From assembly GCA_964387625.1 (NCBI GenBank), contig CAYLWN010000004.1, positions 1-42,225 on the forward strand: a stretch of DNA of 42,225 nucleotides, given 5' to 3'. The notes beneath the pieces were generated by a model, which ran no database searches, had not been told where the DNA came from, and saw only the letters and a list, made by a program, of their open reading frames with translations. Shown here one piece after another: positions 4,066 to 34,157 of this stretch. The translations under genes were made by a program, and so were the position numbers. The DNA comes from an uncultured Gammaproteobacteria bacterium (GTDB lineage: Bacteria > Patescibacteriota > Microgenomatia > UBA10105). Positions within the stretch are counted from its first letter, which is position 1. Every line of letters begins with the position of its first letter.

Positions 4066-5007
4066 TTAGCCCCCGATGACGTAGATAATCAATATGGTAA
4101 ACATTCCCCAAAGTATGATAGTAGTTAAAAGCGGTAGATCTGATGTAAGAATTTTTTCAGGGGATTCACCTTTACCTTCATAAATCAGCTGCATGTAACG
4201 CATAATTCCAAATAAGACTAAAGGAATAGTGGCCATTAACCATTTCCGGTCTGATGGAAAGGTATCAATTATAAAAGACCGATATAACCATTTTGATTGC
4301 GGAGGTCTTTCCAGAAATGAATAAAATGCATAAGTGATCCAAGTTGAATTTGCAAACATAGCAGTATAAGTATCTAACAATTTCTCAGAATAATTTAATA
4401 ATGTTGCCCTAGTTGTCGGCATTTGTGAGCCGCCCATATTTTGAATCAAAGTTAATTCTGCCCGACGTTTTCCAATAGCCAAAAATAAAGATAGTGAAAA
4501 GGCTGCCAGTGCTAACCATACAGAAATATGCCAGCCGGTGGCTGCTTCGCCGGCGTAAACACGTAAAAAATAACCCAAAGCAATGATCAAAATATCGACA
4601 ACTGCAAATTGTTTAAAAACCAAAGTATAGCCAAATGCGAGCATGGTAAACAAAGCACTAATAAGTAAAAAATTTGTATTGATTTGTGATGCTGCAAAAA
4701 GACTCACCAGCAACATGCTAAAAGATAAAATAATCGCAATTTGAGGTGAAATAATTCCTGATGCGATAGGCCGGAATTTTTTAAAAGGATGCTTACGGTC
4801 TTTTGGCGCATCCATAACATCATTAAACAAATAGTTGCTGGAAGAAATTGCGCATAAAATTACAAAAACTTTTAGACTGATTCCAAAAAGCAGGGGATTG
4901 AATAATTGTCCGGTAAACATAATGGGTGCAAAAACTGCCACATTTTTTAACCATTGCCGGGGTCGGACAGCTTTAAACAAAGTCCAAAATATATTTGATT
5001 TGATCAT
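4066..5007 (-). CDS. UbiA-superfamily prenyltransferase, decaprenyl-phosphate phosphoribosyltransferase (DPPR synthase)-like
   Basis: 313 aa, polytopic. NDVMDAPKDRKHPFKKFRPIASG matches the NDxxDxxxDRxHPxKxxRPIAxG signature of DPPR-synthase-type UbiA enzymes. Confidence 0.8.
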   Translation of the reverse strand: MIKSNIFWTLFKAVRPRQWLKNVAVFAPIMFTGQLFNPLLFGISLKVFVILCAISSSNYLFNDVMDAPKDRKHPFKKFRPIASGIISPQIAIILSFSMLLVSLFAASQINTNFLLISALFTMLAFGYTLVFKQFAVVDILIIALGYFLRVYAGEAATGWHISVWLALAAFSLSLFLAIGKRRAELTLIQNMGGSQMPTTRATLLNYSEKLLDTYTAMFANSTWITYAFYSFLERPPQSKWLYRSFIIDTFPSDRKWLMATIPLVLFGIMRYMQLIYEGKGESPEKILTSDLPLLTTIILWGMFTILIIYVIGG

Positions 5008-7763: not shown

Positions 7764-7876
7764 ATAATAAATAAGCTGAATAATAGACTTTAATATTAAA
7801 TATCAAAAATCAAATATAAATAAGTTTTATTTAATATTTTATATGTATTTTTAATTTTTAATATATGATATTTGAT

Positions 7877-12885: not shown

Positions 12886-12890
12886 AAAAT

Positions 12891-12976
12891 TATTCTTCGA
12901 ATCCGGCTTTGCCGGATGAGAAGTCATCAAAGTTTAGTTCTCATCCACAATTTCGTCGGGATTCGAACAATAATTT
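12891..12976 (+). repeat. Family A element, diverged intergenic copy (A1)
   Basis: tattcttcgaatccggctttgccggatgagaagtcatcaaagtttagttctcatccacaatttcgtcgggattcgaacaataattt. Colinear with A2/A3. The first hairpin keeps its pairing through compensatory changes. Confidence 0.75.
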
Positions 12977-13029
12977 AAATCTTAAATCAATTGTAATCGA
13001 ATCCGGACGGTGTTACAATTTTTATGTTT

Positions 13030-13155
13030 ATTAAAGCTCGCAGATAAAATTTTTAGCAGATTCCAAAAACCGTTCGGGATGAAATGTTAAACTGTTAAAT
13101 AAAGTCATCGGCCCTCACTTGGTTTGGAACTGAAAAATTTTACCATGCTAGCATT
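13030..13155 (+). repeat. Family B long imperfect-palindrome element (B1)
   Basis: aaagctcgcagataaaattttt...ttccaaaaacc gttcgggatgaa...ttaaataaagtcatcggccctc...ggtttggaa...aaaaattttaccatgctagc. Colinear with B2. Confidence 0.65.
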
Positions 13156-13170
13156 AATAACTTAATTATT

Positions 13171-14441: not shown

Positions 14442-14842
14442 CGTCATCCAGAACCCAGTCAGAACTGGGTGAAGGATCTCAATTATTTCACAAAATATCA
14501 TTATATAAATCTTTATATTTAGGATTTATTTTTTGTATAAGCTCTTTTTTATAAGTTCTGCTTTTTCCCTTTAGATATTTTTCTCTTTTAATTGCTTCTT
14601 CAATATTATTAAACACTTCAAAATAGACAAGTTTATGAAGATGATATTTTTTAGTAAATCCGTCAATAATATTATTTTTATGTTCCCAAACCCTTTTTAT
14701 AAGATTAGAAGTAACTCCGATATAAAGAACAGTATTATAAGAATTTGTGAATATATAAATAAAACCTCTTTTGATTTGCATATATTTATTATAAATATTG
14801 TGTGAGATTCTTCGTCCAGTTCTGACTGGACTCTGAATGACG
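14442..14842 (-). mobile_element. 401-bp cassette in which roughly 40-bp terminal inverted repeats enclose the GIY-YIG ORF (family C, putative autonomous copy)
   Basis: The left end is cgtcatccagaacccagtcagaactgggtgaaggatctca (14442-14481). The reverse complement of the right end (14803-14842) is cgtcattcagagtccagtcagaactggacgaagaatctca. Each arm also contains its own small hairpin. Confidence 0.8.
14488..14781 (-). CDS. Small stand-alone GIY-YIG nuclease (COG2827/URI-domain type)
   Basis: 97 aa. FIYIFTN (GIY), VLYIGVTSNL (YIG), R..EHK, EAIKREKYLKGKSR. Flanked by roughly 40-bp inverted repeats. Confidence 0.9.
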   Translation of the reverse strand: MQIKRGFIYIFTNSYNTVLYIGVTSNLIKRVWEHKNNIIDGFTKKYHLHKLVYFEVFNNIEEAIKREKYLKGKSRTYKKELIQKINPKYKDLYNDIL

Positions 14843-14906: not shown

Positions 14907-17900
14907 ATGAAATTAAATTCGGAACAAAAGAAAGCAGTAAGATTTGGGTTTGGACCACTTTTGATTATTGCCGGAGCAGGTACTGGTAAAACTACAGTTA
15001 TCACTGAAAGAATCAAGAATTTAATTATCAAACAAAATATTAAGCCCCAGGAAATTTTAGCCCTGACTTTTACTGAAAAAGCTGCCTTAGAAATGGAAAC
15101 CAGGGTAGATACAGCCATGCCTTATGGTTATACGCAAATGTGGATATCAACATTTCACAAATTTTGTGACCGGATTTTAAGAAATGAAGCAGTACATATA
15201 GGTTTAAACCCCGGATATAAATTATTTACAGATACTGATGCCACTATGTTATTTCGGAAAAATTTATTTAAATTAAATCTGGAATATTTCCGTCCCTTGG
15301 GTAATCCGGGGAAATTTATTGCTGGCATATTACAACATTTTTCAAGATTGCAAGATGAAGACATTAGTCCCACGCAATATCTTGCGTGGTGCAATGACAA
15401 ATTTCAAATGACCAATGACAAAAAAAATGAAGAAAATGTTTTAGAACAAAAAAAATATCAGGAATTGGCAAATGCATATAAATTTTATGCTGATTTAAAA
15501 ATTCAGGAAAATGTGATGGACTTTGGAGATTTAATTTCTAATGCGTTGCAATTATTCCGCACCAGAAAAAATATTTTAAAAAAATATCAAAGCCAGTTTA
15601 AATTTGTTTTAGTTGATGAGTTTCAAGATACAAATATCGCCCAGTATGAATTGATCAAACTTTTAGCACCACTAAATCCTCTCTCCGCCAGCCGGCGAAG
15701 CAGCCCTAACCTGACGGTTGTAGGAGACGATAATCAATCAATTTATAAATTCAGAGGCGCAGCTATTTCCAACATTTTGCATTTTCAAAAAGATTATAAA
15801 AACTGTCAACAAATAGTTTTACGGAAAAATTACCGTTCTTACCAATATATATTAGACAGCAGCCGTAAACTTATTAAGCACAATGATCCTGATACGTTAG
15901 AAGCCAAATTGGGGATCAGTAAAAATTTAACTGCTGTTAGAAAAACTGCCGATTTCCACAAAATTGAATTTATTCATGAAAATAGAGTGGAAGATGAAGC
16001 AGAAGTTGTTGCGAAAAAAATTAAAGAATTGAAAAGCAGTGTCATCCTGAACAGAGTGAAGGATCTGCCTATCGATACAATGCTTAAAGAAGATTCTTCG
16101 TCTTCGTCTCAGAATGACAGAAAGTGGAGTGATTTTGCGATTTTGGTCAGGGCCAATAATCATGCTGAATCTTTTATCCGTGCGTTGGGGAGAGCCTCTA
16201 TTCCTTATCAGTTTTTAGGACCGGCTAAATTATACAGACAACCAGAAGTAAAAGAACTGATTGCATATCTGCAAGTATTAAATGATTTTACAGACAACAG
16301 TGCTTTTTTCAAAGTTTTATCCATGCCATTTTTTGATATTTCGCAAAGAGATTTGATAGCTATCTCTAATTGGGCAAAAAGAAATCAACTGTCAATTTTT
16401 GAAGGCGTAGAAATCATTACCGGAGTGAGAATTGATGAAAAACTGCAATTGCCATTTATAAGCGATTTAACCCGGGAAAAAATTACCAAATTGGTAAAGA
16501 TGATATTAAACCACTTAAAACTTACCAACAAAGAAACAGCCGGACAAATATTATTTTATTTTTTGGAAAATTCCGGAATGTTAAAAAACATTTTGGAATT
16601 TAAAACTCCAATTGATGAACGGCAGGCGGGAAATATAACCAAATTTTTTAATAAACTAAAATCTTACGAAGCAGAGCATGAAGATGCATCAGTTATTGCA
16701 GTTTTAGATTGGCTAATGCTATCAATGGAATTGGGTGAGTCACCTCAAGCACAGGATATGGATTGGACTGACAACGATGCGGTAAATATCCTGACAACTC
16801 ACAGCAGTAAGGGTTTAGAATTTCCTGTAGTATTTTTAGTTAATTTGGTTTCGCAAAGGTTTCCTTCAACAGAAAGACATGAACAAATACCAATTCCCGA
16901 AGAATTGATAAAGGAAGTATTGCCAATTGGAGATTTTCATTTAGAAGAAGAGCGCAGACTGTTTTATGTAGGTATGACCAGGGCTAGGGATTTATTATAT
17001 TTAACAGCTGCAAATTATTATGGAGAGGGGAAACGTGAAAAAAAAATTTCTCCGTTTGTAAGTGAGGCATTAGACAAAAATTTTTCTTTTGAAAAAAATC
17101 CTAAAACAATAAATCAATTATCTTTGTTGGATTGGGGGAAATCCTTAAATCCTGAGCAAAGTCGAAGGACTCAGGATAAATTACATATTCATGGTGAGCG
17201 AAGCCGAACCATTAATTATTTATCATTTTCCCAAATTGAAGCATTTAAAACTTGCCCCTTACATTATAAATTAAGATATATTTTAAAAATTCCCACTCCC
17301 CCCTCCCCTGCTTTATCATTTGGAAGTTCTATGCATGCAACTCTCAAAAATATTTATGAAATCGTCAGACAAAAAATAAAAATAAATCACGAAACGCTTG
17401 AGCAATTATTGGAAAAAAATTGGATTAGAGAGGGATATGGAAATAAAAGTTATGAAAATTTAATGAAAGCCAGGGGTAAAAAATATTTATGGCAATATTT
17501 TAAAAAAGAATTTGATCCAAAAACAAAAGTTTTATTATTGGAGGAAAAATTTATGTTTCCGATTAGTTATTCTTCGAATTCGGTTTTACCGAATGAGAAG
17601 TTATTAAAGATTAGTTCTCGTTCTGCAAAGCAGGACTCGAACAATAAATTTCTCAAAATCGGTGGAAAAATTGATCGGGTAGATGATTTGGGAAAAGGAA
17701 TAATTGAAATCATAGATTATAAAACCGGTCGGGTACCATCGAAGCGGGAAGTGGATAAAGATTTACAGATGTCAATTTACGCTTTGGCAGCAACAGAAAT
17801 TCCTCATCTTCCTTTTGCAAAAAAACCTGAACAAATCAAATTATCTTTTTATTATTTTGATACCCAGGAAAAAGTTTCTACAGTTAGAACTCAGGATCAA

Positions 17901-18020
17901 TTAAATACAGAAAAAGAAAATTTAATCAAAATTGCTCAAGAGATTAGTGATTCAGACTATAAATGCTCAGGTCATAAATTTTGCGAAAATTGTGAATATG
18001 TATTGTGGTGTGGAATCTAA
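14907..18020 (+). CDS. UvrD/Rep-type SF1 helicase fused to a C-terminal PD-(D/E)XK nuclease with a Cas4/AddB-like 4-Cys cluster
   Basis: AGAGTGKTT (Walker A), VDEFQDTN, VVGDDNQSIYKFRGA, LTTHSSKGLEFPVVF, YVGMTRAR. C-terminal domain: first Cys in FKTCPLHYKL, GKIDRVD, IIDYKTG, then C-x5-C-x2-C in CSGHKFCENCEYVLWC. Contains several repeat-derived in-frame segments (see findings). Confidence 0.9.
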   Translation: MKLNSEQKKAVRFGFGPLLIIAGAGTGKTTVITERIKNLIIKQNIKPQEILALTFTEKAALEMETRVDTAMPYGYTQMWISTFHKFCDRILRNEAVHIGLNPGYKLFTDTDATMLFRKNLFKLNLEYFRPLGNPGKFIAGILQHFSRLQDEDISPTQYLAWCNDKFQMTNDKKNEENVLEQKKYQELANAYKFYADLKIQENVMDFGDLISNALQLFRTRKNILKKYQSQFKFVLVDEFQDTNIAQYELIKLLAPLNPLSASRRSSPNLTVVGDDNQSIYKFRGAAISNILHFQKDYKNCQQIVLRKNYRSYQYILDSSRKLIKHNDPDTLEAKLGISKNLTAVRKTADFHKIEFIHENRVEDEAEVVAKKIKELKSSVILNRVKDLPIDTMLKEDSSSSSQNDRKWSDFAILVRANNHAESFIRALGRASIPYQFLGPAKLYRQPEVKELIAYLQVLNDFTDNSAFFKVLSMPFFDISQRDLIAISNWAKRNQLSIFEGVEIITGVRIDEKLQLPFISDLTREKITKLVKMILNHLKLTNKETAGQILFYFLENSGMLKNILEFKTPIDERQAGNITKFFNKLKSYEAEHEDASVIAVLDWLMLSMELGESPQAQDMDWTDNDAVNILTTHSSKGLEFPVVFLVNLVSQRFPSTERHEQIPIPEELIKEVLPIGDFHLEEERRLFYVGMTRARDLLYLTAANYYGEGKREKKISPFVSEALDKNFSFEKNPKTINQLSLLDWGKSLNPEQSRRTQDKLHIHGERSRTINYLSFSQIEAFKTCPLHYKLRYILKIPTPPSPALSFGSSMHATLKNIYEIVRQKIKINHETLEQLLEKNWIREGYGNKSYENLMKARGKKYLWQYFKKEFDPKTKVLLLEEKFMFPISYSSNSVLPNEKLLKISSRSAKQDSNNKFLKIGGKIDRVDDLGKGIIEIIDYKTGRVPSKREVDKDLQMSIYALAATEIPHLPFAKKPEQIKLSFYYFDTQEKVSTVRTQDQLNTEKENLIKIAQEISDSDYKCSGHKFCENCEYVLWCGI
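16040..16119 (+). repeat. Family C ORF-less derivative (MITE-like) in-frame inside the helicase-nuclease gene
   Basis: gtcatcctgaac-aga-gtgaaggatct ... agattcttcgtc-ttcgt-ctcagaatgac. Both arms match the GIY-YIG cassette ends almost base for base apart from the inner hairpins. Translated as SVILNRVKDLPIDTMLKEDSSSSSQND. Confidence 0.8.
17159..17222 (+). repeat. Family C-like hairpin fragments within the helicase-to-nuclease linker coding region
   Basis: atcctgag-caaagtcgaagga-ctcaggat (perfect 8-bp inverted repeat) and atggt-gagcgaagccga-accat. A GC-rich patch in an AT-rich gene, translated as PEQSRRTQD...HGERSRT. Confidence 0.5.
17568..17651 (+). repeat. Family A element (A2), 84 bp, in-frame in the nuclease domain of the helicase-nuclease gene
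   Basis: Encodes YSSNSVLPNEKLLKISSRSAKQDSNNKF. Manual base-by-base comparison shows it is the exact reverse complement of 18492-18575. Confidence 0.9.
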
Positions 18021-18044
18021 CTATTACTTTCTTTGCATGAGTTT

Positions 18045-18175
18045 TATAAAAGCTCGTATACAAAATTTTCTTGTTCCGCAACTCGATCGGGATGAAGCAT
18101 TACACTATTAAATAAAGTAATCGGCCCTCCTGACAATGCGAACTGCGAAAATTTCATATTACTCGCCTTTATAAA
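18045..18175 (+). repeat. Family B long imperfect-palindrome element (B2)
   Basis: aaagctcgtatacaaaattttc...gttccgcaac tcgatcgggatgaa...ttaaataaagtaatcggccctc...tgcgaac...gaaaatttcatattactcgcc. Confidence 0.65.
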
Positions 18176-18215
18176 GAATAAGAAAAATTACAAAAAATAC
18201 TTCAGGGGTTATTAA

Positions 18216-19127
18216 TTATAAATTTATTTTGAATGATTGGGGGAAATAAATTTCTTTACCTCCAAAACCGGATTTGAATTTGGAAAATCCTAACCATTCT
18301 TTATTTAATTTTTCGTAACGTTCGTCATATATACCTTCAAAATCAAAATTTGTGCAATTCATTTTTTTTGCCTTTTTTAAACTTTCCCAAATCAGAAGAG
18401 TTGGTGCAAAATTTTGTTTGCCCGCGTTTGACGCGGCTGCCATCCAATAATAAGCAGTATTTTGCCAGATGAGAATTAAGACTCCGGCGATAAATTTATT
18501 GTTCGAGTCCTGCTTTGCAGAACGAGAACTAATCTTTAATAACTTCTCATTCGGTAAAACCGAATTCGAAGAATAATGAGCAATGTTTATCTTTGCCAAT
18601 AATATAAAAGCATTATTTGGTGCAAAAGTTTTCCATATTGGTTTAAGAGTTTGTGTAGTTAAAAATCCCAAAAATCCGGCTGATGAACCTTTAAGTTTAA
18701 TAAAATCTTCAATGTTATTAGAGTGAAATATTTCAACACCCAAATTTTGCGCCCGTCTAACTGCTTTTCTTTTAGCTCCTGAAAATTTATTAAATATTTC
18801 TGACTCATCAGGAAGTAAATCAATAAAAATTGTTTTTGTAGGTAAAAATGGAGACGTCAATGATTTTAAATTAGAGATTGCCACGTCGTCCTTTGGACTC
18901 CTCGCAATGACATTAGGCTCGACGGAAATTGAATGGCTATGATATTTTTGCATTAATAGTTTTAGTTTATTTAACTGAGGCAATTTATCAGATCTTTGCA
19001 ATTTCATAACTGCAGGTAATAATGGAAGTTTTTTAATAAAAATATTTACCCCATCAATATTTTCCACATTCCACCCAATTTTATTCATGAACTGAGCATA
19101 TGTTGAAGATTGATGTATGTCTTGCAT
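18216..19127 (-). CDS. FemAB/MurM-family aminoacyl-tRNA-dependent peptidoglycan peptidyltransferase (paralog 1)
   Basis: Colinear with paralog 2: VEPNV, KRKAVRRAQNLGVEI, YYWMAAASNAG, FDFEGI, GFSKFKSGFGG. The ORF is open to 19172. The ATG at 19127 (MQDIHQS) aligns better with paralog 2. Confidence 0.8.
   Translation of the reverse strand: MQDIHQSSTYAQFMNKIGWNVENIDGVNIFIKKLPLLPAVMKLQRSDKLPQLNKLKLLMQKYHSHSISVEPNVIARSPKDDVAISNLKSLTSPFLPTKTIFIDLLPDESEIFNKFSGAKRKAVRRAQNLGVEIFHSNNIEDFIKLKGSSAGFLGFLTTQTLKPIWKTFAPNNAFILLAKINIAHYSSNSVLPNEKLLKISSRSAKQDSNNKFIAGVLILIWQNTAYYWMAAASNAGKQNFAPTLLIWESLKKAKKMNCTNFDFEGIYDERYEKLNKEWLGFSKFKSGFGGKEIYFPQSFKINL
18492..18575 (-). repeat. Family A element (A3), 84 bp, in-frame in Fem paralog 1
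   Basis: Exact reverse complement of 17568-17651. Encodes the same 28 aa in the minus-strand gene. Confidence 0.9.
18874..18911 (-). repeat. Solo family C arm, in-frame in Fem paralog 1
   Basis: The coding strand reads gtcattgcgaggagtccaaaggacgacgtggcaatctc (GTCAT...AATCTC with an inner hairpin). Translated as VIARSPKDDVAIS. Confidence 0.55.
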
Positions 19128-19173
19128 ATTTTTTCTTTCTACTTTCTTGCTTGTTGGGAAGAAAGTAAGCAAA

Positions 19174-19228
19174 CCTGCCTGCGCAGGCAGGGAAAGGAAA
19201 CCCGTGAACCTGCCTGCCGGCAGGCAGG
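19174..19228. repeat. Pair of GC-rich perfect palindromes (REP-like)
   Basis: cctgcctgcgcaggcagg (19174-19191) and cctgcctgccggcaggcagg (19209-19228), between the two fem genes. Confidence 0.85.
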
Positions 19229-19403
19229 GGTTTTTCTATTTTTCTAACTTCATAATTATCAGGTGGAACCTCGGACCAGTTGGCCGTCTCCGCACTTTAA
19301 TTACTCGTAAGAAAAATTTAGAAAAACACTTCAATGGCATTATAAATCATTTCAAGGGTTGATTAGAAGATAAAAAATTTCAAAAAATACCTCAAGGGTT
19401 GTT

Positions 19404-20479: not shown

Positions 20480-20776
20480 TTAAAAAGTGCTACATTTAAA
20501 ATTAATGACGCAGAAAAATAGTTGGTTGCCTGTTGATGAAAGATTGGTTCCGGATATTTTTTCATTTAAATATCCTAAAAGCAAGTGGGTAAGAGTATTG
20601 ATTGCGCTGGAAATGATTTTATCTGTTGGAGCAGTTGTCGGCACTTTGCTTTTAGCCTTGATGCCAAAAACCTCAACCACTCCCAAAGAAACCAATGCAG
20701 CTACTACGACAATAAAGACAACCCCTAAACCAATTTTATACCGATAGCATTTGAAAAATGCATCGAGTATATACAC
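20480..20776 (-). CDS. Possible small membrane protein (weak call)
   Basis: 98-aa ORF with one TM (IGLGVVFIVVVAALVSLGVV) in an otherwise 430-bp gap. The start codon lies inside repeat D1, and a mirror ORF exists on the + strand. Confidence 0.25.
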   Translation of the reverse strand: MYILDAFFKCYRYKIGLGVVFIVVVAALVSLGVVEVFGIKAKSKVPTTAPTDKIISSAINTLTHLLLGYLNEKISGTNLSSTGNQLFFCVINFKCSTF

Positions 20777-20835
20777 GATTATCTTATTAGAGCAAAATTT
20801 TTCAAAAATTTTGCAAATTCGGAGAAGATCGGTAT
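20737..20835 (-). repeat. Family D hairpin element (D1)
   Basis: Perfect 9-bp termini tataccgat...atcggtata. Central perfect palindrome gcaaaattttt-g-aaaaattttgc. Its reverse complement is colinear with D2. Confidence 0.75.
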
Positions 20836-20851
20836 AAAATAAATTATTATT

Positions 20852-26920: not shown

Positions 26921-26994
26921 AAAATTCGAAATTCGAAATTCGAAATTCGAAATACGAATGACGAATCAAATCCAAATAATTAAATTTCTAAATG
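26921..26994. repeat. Family E-like element with a tandem heptamer (aaattcg)x4 plus degenerate units (E3)
   Basis: aaaattcgaaattcgaaattcgaaattcgaaatacgaatgacgaatc ... aaatttctaaatg. Confidence 0.65.
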
Positions 26995-30364: not shown

Positions 30365-30384
30365 AAAAATTTACCCCTTTATTA

Positions 30385-30487
30385 TATACCGATCTTCTTT
30401 GAAATTACATGATTTTTTAGAAAAAAATCATGCTCTAATAAGATGATCGAATATATACACGATGTATTTTTTAATACAATCGGTATA
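30385..30487 (+). repeat. Family D hairpin element (D2)
   Basis: tataccgatcttct...catgatttttt-ag-aaaaaaatcatg...gctctaataagatgatcg...atcggtata. Confidence 0.75.
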
Positions 30488-30589
30488 GAATATTGTTAGT
30501 ATAAGCTAAAATTAACACTTTGACAAGAGTAAAGTTTCCGAAAAATTAACCTCTACCAGTATATTAGTATAGTGGTTATAATTTAAATT

Positions 30590-34010: not shown

Positions 34011-34053
34011 AAATTAAGTGTAGCATAACAAAATAATTTAACCATCTCTTTTT

Positions 34054-34140
34054 GTCATTCTGGAGCGAAACAAAGTGGAGCGATAGAATCTTTTTATAGA
34101 GCCTATCGTCTCCGCCTGATGGCGGATCCTCCAGGATGAC
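34054..34140. repeat. Family C MITE-like hairpin element (intergenic, upstream of the hrcA promoter)
   Basis: gtcattctggagcgaaacaaagtggagcgatagaatct ... agcctatcgtctccgcctgatggcggatcctccaggatgac. Confidence 0.8.
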
Positions 34141-34157
34141 AAATAAAGAAAAAGGGG

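Follow-up and report, generated by a model that had tools for sequence, protein, structure and literature searches.

Results

The same 84-bp palindrome is inserted in frame in two neighbouring genes

In a groundwater bacterium of the Microgenomates (CPR), two adjacent genes transcribed towards each other contain the same 84-bp palindrome in the same reading frame, and we consider it probable that this sequence is a small selfish element, like a Rickettsia palindromic element (RPE) or an intragenic MITE, that is tolerated in frame in permissive loops of the encoded proteins. It is one of a few non-autonomous palindromic repeats of 84-87 nt that form a family restricted to one species, and is an example of an already known kind of selfish DNA. 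The DNA analysed, hereafter the window, is a contig of 42,225 nt (CAYLWN010000004.1), in which the host genes and their copies lie as follows.

14907..18020, plus strand: host gene 1, UvrD-type helicase fused to a PD-(D/E)XK nuclease, AddA-like, 1037 aa
18216..19172, minus strand: host gene 2, FemAB-family peptidyltransferase (Pfam FemAB), paralogue 1; likely start at 19127, giving 303 aa
17568..17651, plus strand: copy A, palindromic element of 84 nt, in frame within the PD-(D/E)XK domain of the helicase-nuclease, aa 888-915
18492..18575, minus strand: copy B, identical element of 84 nt, in frame within FemAB paralogue 1, residues 200-227 of an ORF of 318 aa

The first gene (14907-18020, plus strand) has Pfam matches to UvrD-helicase, UvrD_C and PDDEXK_1, and an identical helicase-nuclease protein was found in several assemblies; the Fem proteins P0001 and P0248 are each 303 aa long. 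Copy A is the exact reverse complement of copy B (84 of 84 bases). In a repeat search the pair extended to 88 nt at 99% identity (17567-17654 and 18489-18576, 834 nt apart), and the 28-29-nt halves of the 84-mer each occurred exactly twice in the window, against 0.00 times expected from shuffles. Only two of the six frames of the element are open. Both genes read it in the same sense and in the same open frame (+0), in which each protein gains the peptide YSSNSVLPNEKLLKISSRSAKQDSNNKF; this peptide is hydrophilic, with a Kyte-Doolittle mean of -1.0 versus -0.2 for the second open frame. The predicted RNA fold of the element (-25.3 kcal/mol, z = -4.1) bears out its hairpin character, and is slightly better on the sense strand than on the antisense strand (-21.4 kcal/mol). 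An earlier note on this DNA had described the inverted identity, its ending at the element borders, the two stop-free frames and the hairpin; these descriptions hold, save for one extra T shared on the 5' side. An example of a tryptic peptide across the insert is FMFPISYSSNSVLPNEK.

The insert is absent from orthologues and lies in predicted surface loops

At the site of copy A, all 34 helicase-nuclease orthologues examined have a turn of 2-8 aa in place of the insert; copy A is absent from the syntenic relatives L024 and L025, the site being empty in syntenic relatives with 57-63% amino-acid identity. The Fem loop that holds copy B is empty in P0002, P0008, P0023, P0025, P0028 and the Fem2 paralogue, while some other orthologues carry unrelated palindromic inserts there. 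Both reading frames are intact and align with orthologues on either side of the insert. The alignments thus support the earlier claim of insertion for both genes, and both coding copies are lineage-specific. At the DNA level we found no precise empty allele for any copy: the only insert-free helicase allele is a diverged tail of 92 nt with which contig L005 ends, and it may be chimeric. A truncated helicase, P0243 (957 aa), was considered as an insert-free variant and rejected, as it is cut by the contig end and contains the insert.

The earlier note had also placed both sites at beta-hairpin turns, and the AlphaFold2 models agree with this placement. The copy A segment is predicted to be a loop with a pLDDT of about 50, flanked by strands 135-148 and 176-190 (query numbering), and in the copy B segment residues 204-224 (pLDDT below 50) are placed between strands 188-195 and 229-236. 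Apart from these low-confidence turns the models are confident, with mean pLDDT values of 84.6 and 87.9.

The element is a nested palindrome

The 84-bp element is a discrete nested palindrome, since one of its two internal hairpins is a diverged reverse complement of the other; this nesting had been missed at the first reading. The element also has 12-nt terminal inverted repeats. In copy A the parts are:

17567..17578, plus strand: 5' terminal inverted repeat, TTATTCTTCGAA
17572..17600, plus strand: internal hairpin 1, predicted fold: stem of 4 bp, 2x2 internal loop, second stem of 7 bp, loop of 3 nt
17614..17642, plus strand: internal hairpin 2, architecture as in hairpin 1, of which it is the diverged reverse complement
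17636..17647, plus strand: 3' terminal inverted repeat, CTCGAACAATAA, matching the 5' repeat at 10 of 12 positions

Two further members of the family, one of them also overlooked before, bring the known copies to four, three in about 52 kb around the locus and one on a related contig.

12891..12977, plus strand: copy C, diverged non-coding 87-nt copy between metG and rmuC (nhmmer E = 1e-10)
start of contig L017: copy D, diverged, its 3' part lost where the contig stops

Copy C is 77% identical to the element (68 of 88 aligned columns) and is non-coding, with an in-frame stop two codons upstream. It folds as a single long hairpin (-27.8 kcal/mol, z = -4.7), so that z-scores across the copies run from -4.1 to -4.7. 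It lies 5 nt upstream of the likely ATG (12885) of a minus-strand ORF for a 122-aa membrane protein; indeed, copies C and D are each placed directly upstream of a membrane-protein ORF and antisense to it. Copies C and D, about 20% diverged, begin at the same 5' end, and copy C shares the 3' end too, which supports the claim of a discrete repeat unit. The 12-mer TTATTCTTCGAA opens both of them (12890-12901 in copy C). Its partner across copies is (C/T)TCGAACAATAA, with pairing at 10-11 of the 12 positions; copy C reaches 11 of 12, and its arms extend to 18 nt at 94%. The family is A+T-rich and its unit head is TTATTC; at 84-87 nt the unit is too small to encode a transposase. In contig L016, copy C is replaced by a different, diverged sequence rather than by a precise gap.

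The family was not found outside the host species in the sequences searched. Neither a 10-kb stretch outside the window (L020) nor about 55 kb from four relatives (L024-L027) contained an additional copy. Public DNA was scanned with a pattern tolerant of covariation. Three loci in genome contigs and one in metagenome contigs proved to be chance matches without hairpins, and viral contigs gave no match; these negatives carry little weight because the metagenome scan missed JGI contig L013, which carries the window sequence. Among the chance matches were a conserved Chitinophagaceae gene start and L004. A word search with the two open-frame peptides concatenated gave no match and was insensitive, as it missed P0001, which carries the peptide. 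An exhaustive HMMER search of 1.84 billion cluster representatives with the 34-aa insert region returned Fem1 itself only. Rfam yielded nothing at gathering thresholds and, at E-value thresholds, weak generic miRNA-hairpin matches on both strands. The fold of the element is cloverleaf-like, but it is not a tRNA, since a tRNA/tmRNA search found none.

Comparison with known palindromic elements

The element is much like the RPEs. In-frame palindromic insertions are documented for Rickettsia (PMC10969869, after Ogata et al. 2000 Science and 2002 Genome Res), where the RPEs are about 100-150 nt long and occur in tens of copies. In both systems short, self-complementary repeats lie in intergenic DNA and in frame in unrelated housekeeping genes, add a hydrophilic peptide at fold-compatible positions (here surface loops in the AlphaFold2 predictions) and leave the frames of the host genes intact; both also reside in small, reduced genomes. 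The likeness is one of architecture. Our element is shorter (84-87 nt), four copies are known, and its host is a Microgenomates/CPR groundwater bacterium instead of an intracellular alphaproteobacterium. An RPE-type phenomenon is thereby extended to a CPR bacterium that has a small genome and is free-living or episymbiotic. A limited literature search, which is no proof of novelty, found no paper tying Patescibacteria to MITEs or to protein-coding palindromes.

Bacterial MITEs also occur inside genes, as shown by intragenic ERIC and Correia/CREE-type elements (PMC10969869, PMC2229807). Like these, the element is small and non-autonomous, without transposase coding capacity, has terminal inverted repeats and a strong hairpin, is dispersed, and fuses in frame with ORFs. 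In contrast to them, it has no visible target-site duplication: no direct repeat is seen at copies A, B and C. A TA duplication of the IS630/Tc1-like kind was rejected, as the added length would then be 80 nt, a number not divisible by three, and the helicase gene would have had an in-frame TAA before it received the element. Pfam annotations of about 52 kb around the copies include no transposase, RAYT or recombinase gene, and no parent insertion sequence was found there. The MITE label given in the earlier note is thus justified only in part, by the terminal inverted repeats.

REP/BIME sequences are 20-40 nt long and extragenic, have a GTAG or CGTC head and go with a RAYT gene (PMC3733652). 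They share with our family imperfect palindromes whose pairing is kept by compensated stem changes, and differ from it in that its unit is 84 nt, two copies are intragenic, the head is TTATTC, and about 52 kb hold no RAYT/Y1 transposase. PARCELs of Mollicutes are palindromic amphipathic repeat coding elements arranged in tandem within surface-protein genes (PMC2996958). Here too palindromic DNA is coding, and the peptides from its two orientations resemble each other, with NEKLLKIS in the sense frame of copy A and NEKLLILQ in the antisense frame of copy D; however, the 84-bp element occurs as single dispersed insertions in housekeeping enzymes, not as tandem repeats in surface proteins.

Origin of the two identical copies

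On the reading that we favour, that of a tolerated selfish element, a copy would have landed in the DNA encoding a beta-hairpin tip of each gene, or would have been copied into it by recombination or template switching. Each protein would gain a 28-residue, probably disordered surface loop of presumably neutral effect and would stay functional because the element consists of whole codons and its frame +0 has no stop and encodes a hydrophilic peptide. Selection may remove insertions in other frames or places, and therefore only in-frame, loop-compatible copies would remain. The identity of copies A and B would then be due to local duplication in the very recent past or to gene conversion that still goes on. 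The earlier note had spoken of very recent mobility of a MITE, or else gene conversion; the insertion part of this claim stands, and recency is not separable from gene conversion for copies 840 bp apart.

We weighed the possibility that both insertions are old and that conversion between the inverted copies has maintained their perfect identity, with no recent movement. RecA-dependent conversion is feasible at this length, 85 nt being sufficient for homologous recombination, and the copies are very close to each other. The family as a whole is not young, since copies C and D are about 20% diverged, and every sampled strain of the species carries copies A and B without polymorphism. Against great age, the family is entirely missing from about 55 kb of syntenic DNA in the closest relatives sampled (53-63% amino-acid identity), and the insertions therefore postdate the split from those relatives. 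We regard this history as rather unlikely.

A functional role, in which the shared sense RNA hairpins are the target of an RNA-binding protein or RNase III, or in which the peptide is selected, appears quite unlikely to us. Of the 11 pairs in the hairpin-1 stem, 3 differ on both sides among copies A/B, C and D, and all 33 cells remain paired, so that each of the six substitutions among the three distinct sequences is compensated; with three sequences only, this covariation was equalled in 28 of 500 shuffles. The compensated changes could reflect selection on structure, that is, function in place of pure selfishness, or they could arise by templated correction within the palindrome, template switching being able to preserve pairing without selection. 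The slightly better fold of the sense strand and the antisense position of copies C and D before membrane-protein ORFs would fit a function; the confinement of the family to one species, the lack of any Rfam match beyond weak generic ones on both strands and the absence of peptide relatives among the cluster representatives speak against it.

The arrangement is the same in seven assemblies

Eight contigs, which come from seven assemblies, run through copies A and B together, and all of them have the same arrangement and orientation. They comprise MEGAHIT-style k127 and k141 records, ANAN16-1 scaffolds and a JGI assembly, with 99.8-99.98% identity. Some shorter contigs stop at or inside the repeat: L015 and L018 do so at 17651, L016 at 18554.

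Inverted repeats read in the same frame would yield in-frame chimeras upon inversion, and the earlier note had accordingly suggested an inversion that swaps the C-termini of the two proteins. We find a switch of this kind, in which inversion of the 840-bp segment would swap the C-termini or inactivate both genes as phase variation, highly improbable. Among the features of invertons and shufflons the inverted repeats are present, but the alternate orientation is absent from all eight spanning contigs and no invertase, integrase or other recombinase gene lies nearby. The chimeras would, moreover, part the nuclease catalytic motifs from the helicase and truncate Fem1. Several short contigs do end at or inside the repeat, but de Bruijn assembly alone predicts breaks at an 85-nt repeat. 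Finally, that one of the copies is an assembly artefact, as the earlier note had allowed, is scarcely credible: repeats can be collapsed or duplicated in metagenome assemblies and some contigs do break at the element, but we reject the idea because seven assemblies agree on the arrangement, and the frames are unbroken and match orthologues before and after the insert.

The breaks show that palindromic elements fragment metagenome assemblies at their sites, and in-frame inserts of this kind can mislead domain annotation, orthology calls and strain-level assembly.

Unrelated palindromes occupy the same loops

Palindromic inserts of a second type, GTCAT...ATGAC, were found in this genome and in relatives:

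window 16041-16118, 18874-18911 and 34045-34146: GTCAT...ATGAC palindromic inserts, this genome
L024 5997-6092 and L025 10583-10696: GTCAT...ATGAC palindromic inserts, relatives

As in the 84-bp element, an outer inverted repeat surrounds inner hairpins, and the inserts lie in frame in variable Fem and helicase-nuclease loops, including the Fem loop of copy B. They are G+C-rich, unrelated in sequence and present in several Microgenomates lineages, unlike the TTATTCTTCGAA family, which is A+T-rich and found in one species only. Together, palindromic families repeatedly occupy a few beta-hairpin or surface loops of these conserved enzymes, namely Fem loops 1 and 2 and three helicase-nuclease loops. 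That relatives bear different palindromic families in the same loops suggests that such elements contribute to the unusual insertions and the variable length of CPR proteins. A broader proposal, that in-frame palindromic elements are a general, undescribed feature of Microgenomates/CPR bacteria in which unrelated hairpin families recurrently occupy the same loops, we consider unlikely and put forward as a speculation. If true, and if coupled to an unknown hairpin-specific mechanism and selected stems, loop diversity in these very small genomes would have a source that acts across the clade, and there might be a common RNA or DNA structural signal.

In L024 and L025 the palindromic elements that fill the Fem loop are 96 and 114 nt long and fold at -46.7 and -44.8 kcal/mol, and partial copies of the L024 element are also present in Fem2 and in the helicase-nuclease.

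An identical palindromic element lies in frame in two genes

The 84-nt inverted repeat pair described in the earlier note is confirmed as a real feature that had been correctly observed. Positions 17568-17651 (+) (copy A) are the exact reverse complement of 18492-18575 (copy B) at 84 of 84 bases, and an independent repeat finder returned them as an 88-nt pair, 99% identical and 834 nt apart. Within the window, each half of the element is found exactly two times, where dinucleotide-preserving shuffles predict 0.00 occurrences. The borders had been called sharp; identity does end there, except that one additional T is shared on the 5' side. Copy A lies in a UvrD-type helicase fused to a PD-(D/E)XK nuclease (14907-18020, +), and copy B in Fem1, a FemAB-family protein (18216-19172, -). 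As claimed, two of the element's six frames are without a stop, and both genes use the same one, frame +0, acquiring YSSNSVLPNEKLLKISSRSAKQDSNNKF. The peptide of this frame is hydrophilic, with a Kyte-Doolittle mean of -1.0 vs -0.2 for the other open frame.

Orthologue alignments bore out the proposal that the 28-aa segment was inserted: it is absent from 34 helicase-nuclease orthologues and from several Fem orthologues. The helicase-nuclease site is a turn of 2-8 residues in 34/34 aligned orthologues, whereas the window has 28 additional residues; it is also empty in L025 and L024, syntenic contigs of related Microgenomates (63% and 57% identity, respectively). For Fem1, identity to the nearest orthologue from another species is only 55%. 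A short turn is found at this site in several orthologues and in the paralogue Fem2, and in about 16 of the 27 orthologues aligned (A2) the beta-hairpin loop holds long, mutually unrelated inserts. Judged from these alignments, the 28-aa segment is not ancestral.

AlphaFold2 models agree with the suggestion that both sites are beta-hairpin turns, placing each between predicted strands. In Fem1 (mean pLDDT 84.6), insert residues 204-224 (pLDDT <50) lie between strands 188-195 and 229-236; in the nuclease domain (mean pLDDT 87.9), the insert (pLDDT about 50) lies between strands 135-148 and 176-190, directly before the IDRVD motif.

Anatomy and further copies of the element

The 84-nt element folds well above background as RNA (-25.3 kcal/mol, z = -4.1), and its DNA fold consists of an outer stem around three hairpins. 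Its terminal inverted repeats, TTATTCTTCGAA and CTCGAACAATAA, are 12 nt each. Two internal hairpins share an identical architecture (4-bp stem, 2x2 internal loop, 7-bp stem, 3-nt loop), and hairpin 2 is a diverged reverse complement of hairpin 1; the whole element is thus a palindrome of palindromes. It matched no Rfam family, tRNA or tmRNA.

A third copy, overlooked in the earlier note, is copy C (12891-12977, +; 87 nt), which is 77% identical to A/B over aligned columns and folds into a single long hairpin (-27.8 kcal/mol, z = -4.7). It lies in the metG-rmuC interval, 5 nt upstream of the probable ATG of a small opposite-strand membrane-protein ORF, and is non-coding because of an in-frame stop two codons upstream. 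A fourth, diverged copy, D, stands at the very start of L017, a contig of the same population with a different gene upstream of rmuC. There (L017 1-690), a 241-aa membrane-protein gene replaces metG, the ORF and copy C, an arrangement that reflects either structural variation or a scaffold joined chimerically through the repeat. The 5' end is common to all four copies and the 3' end to A, B and C, D being truncated by the contig end. Such shared boundaries speak for a discrete unit, not for a random segmental duplication.

The copies give three distinct sequences, among which 6/6 substitutions in the 7-bp stem of hairpin 1 are compensated. Over hairpin 1 as a whole, 3 of 11 pairs are altered on both sides and 100% of cells are paired, a result that, with so few sequences, was equalled by 28 of 500 shuffles. 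The compensated changes leave open the minority possibility that the structure of the element itself may be selected, at the RNA or DNA level.

The arrangement recurs across assemblies

The species was sampled in at least ten groundwater (Rifle) assemblies. Both coding copies are spanned by eight contigs from seven assemblies, which are 99.8-99.98% identical to the window, share its arrangement and show no difference inside any element copy; moreover, the insert is present in all helicase variants of the 90% cluster. Since one arrangement recurs across seven assemblies and every such variant has the insert, an assembly artefact, which had been considered, is rejected. L015 and L018 terminate exactly at 17651, the final base of copy A, and L016 within copy B; contig ends at an 85-nt repeat are expected and no proof of the inversion once proposed, and the inverted orientation occurs in no contig.

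Two contigs give hints of polymorphism. In L016, about 86 nt of other sequence replaces 135 nt of the window including copy C. L005 departs from the window at 17701, and its last 92 nt (4708-4799) code for a stretch of helicase that lacks the insert, ..FVVSLPQLKLVGVIDRID..; being diverged and at a contig end, this tail may be an assembly chimera, the alternative being a mosaic allele from the same aquifer sample. Elsewhere, strain-level indels comprise a 27-nt A+T-rich insertion at 7804 (L007 and L010) and, in L007 and L009, the loss of two 7-nt tandem units (14 nt) at 26922-26935.

Other palindromic inserts occupy Fem and helicase loops

Fem-loop inserts were read at the DNA level in two relatives. 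Both are strong palindromes of a G+C-rich GTCAT...ATGAC type, different from the window's 84-nt element: 96 nt in L024 (5997-6092, -46.7 kcal/mol) and 114 nt in L025 (10583-10696, -44.8 kcal/mol). Fem2 and the helicase-nuclease of L024 also hold partial copies of its Fem-loop element. The Fem beta-hairpin loop thus looks like a recurrent insertion hot spot. Two further in-frame palindromes, likewise of the GTCAT...ATGAC type, lie in the window's host genes:

16041-16118 (+), 78-nt palindrome GTCATCCTGAAC...CTCAGAATGAC in the helicase-nuclease, reading VILNRVKDLPIDTMLKEDSSSSSQND
18874-18911 (-), small hairpin GTCATTGCGAGGAGTCCAAAGGACGACGTGGCAATCTC in Fem1, reading VIARSPKDDVAIS

In L025 the loop holding the first is shorter by 22 residues, and in L024 it differs; this palindrome is one of a second family of in-frame hairpin inserts, richer in G+C. 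The second is absent from most Fem orthologues (loop pLDDT about 54), and relatives' Fem and helicase loops carry elements of its type. These comparisons show that palindromes have repeatedly entered a small number of variable loops in frame in this clade; should the recurrence of hairpin inserts in the same loops prove systematic, the finding would gain importance.

Palindromes also occur between genes. A 102-nt GTCAT...ATGAC palindrome with inner hairpins lies between a GH39 gene and hrcA (34045-34146; -41.6 kcal/mol in a 90-nt window), and the Fem1-Fem2 interval (19105-19284, core 19174-19228) contains a pair of G+C-rich palindromes, CCTGCCTGCGCAGGCAGG and CCTGCCTGCCGGCAGGCAGG, the window's strongest local fold (-51 kcal/mol) in a genome of 34% G+C. 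A hypervariable helicase segment (15365-15446, aa about 153-180) containing hairpin CCACGCAATATCTTGCGTGG occurs in three or more allelic forms in strains that are otherwise 99.8% identical: that of the window, that of L011, L013 and L015, and that of L017, which adjoins a scaffold gap. In L024, this loop holds a palindromic insert.

Relation to known elements

The best-supported reading places the 84-nt element in a small family of selfish palindromic repeats, whose in-frame copies would persist owing to their location in permissive beta-hairpin turns and to the open, hydrophilic 28-codon frame. PMC10969869 describes similar behaviour for Rickettsia palindromic elements and for some intragenic MITEs. 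Either a recent local copy event or gene conversion could account for the identity of A and B at a distance of 840 bp. The earlier label of MITE fits only in part: the element has terminal inverted repeats and no visible target-site duplication, and the search for a parent element found none. On the features tested, the element fails as a REP/RAYT element, and the A/B pair as an invertible switch.

No true copy was found outside the species. Pattern scans of genome, metagenome and viral collections gave chance matches or nothing, and were weak, missing at least one element-bearing JGI contig. An exhaustive HMMER search of 1.84 billion cluster representatives with the insert peptide returned only Fem1 itself. 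Nor did a copy turn up in the 10 kb beyond the window or in four relatives, of which about 55 kb of syntenic DNA was covered. The annotation of about 52 kb surrounding the copies lists no transposase, RAYT or recombinase. Literature searches found no report of such in-frame palindromic elements in this phylum; the element is a novel example of an already known kind of repeat.

Other repeats in the window

Direct repeats of about 140 nt, 76% identical and present in only two copies, lie at 13025-13166 and 18041-18180 (+) and share the core TCGGGATGAA..TTAAATAAAGT.ATCGGCCCTC. The latter, between the helicase-nuclease and Fem1, contains a called 37-aa minus-strand ORF; the former looks frame-shifted, and the L017 structural variant starts at its edge. 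The pair is a candidate small protein gene or RNA. A dispersed pair of about 115 nt, 79% identical (30372-30499, +; 20733-20842, -), forms a palindrome in its own right, its 31-nt arms separated by 51 nt, and both copies look intergenic. Finally, a 97-aa GIY-YIG ORF (14488-14781, -) lies between small hairpins at 14453-14470 and 14814-14831 that are mutual reverse complements, CCAGTCAGAACTGG and CCAGTTCTGACTGG; together with the ORF the hairpins may make up a small mobile cassette, or they may serve as terminators.
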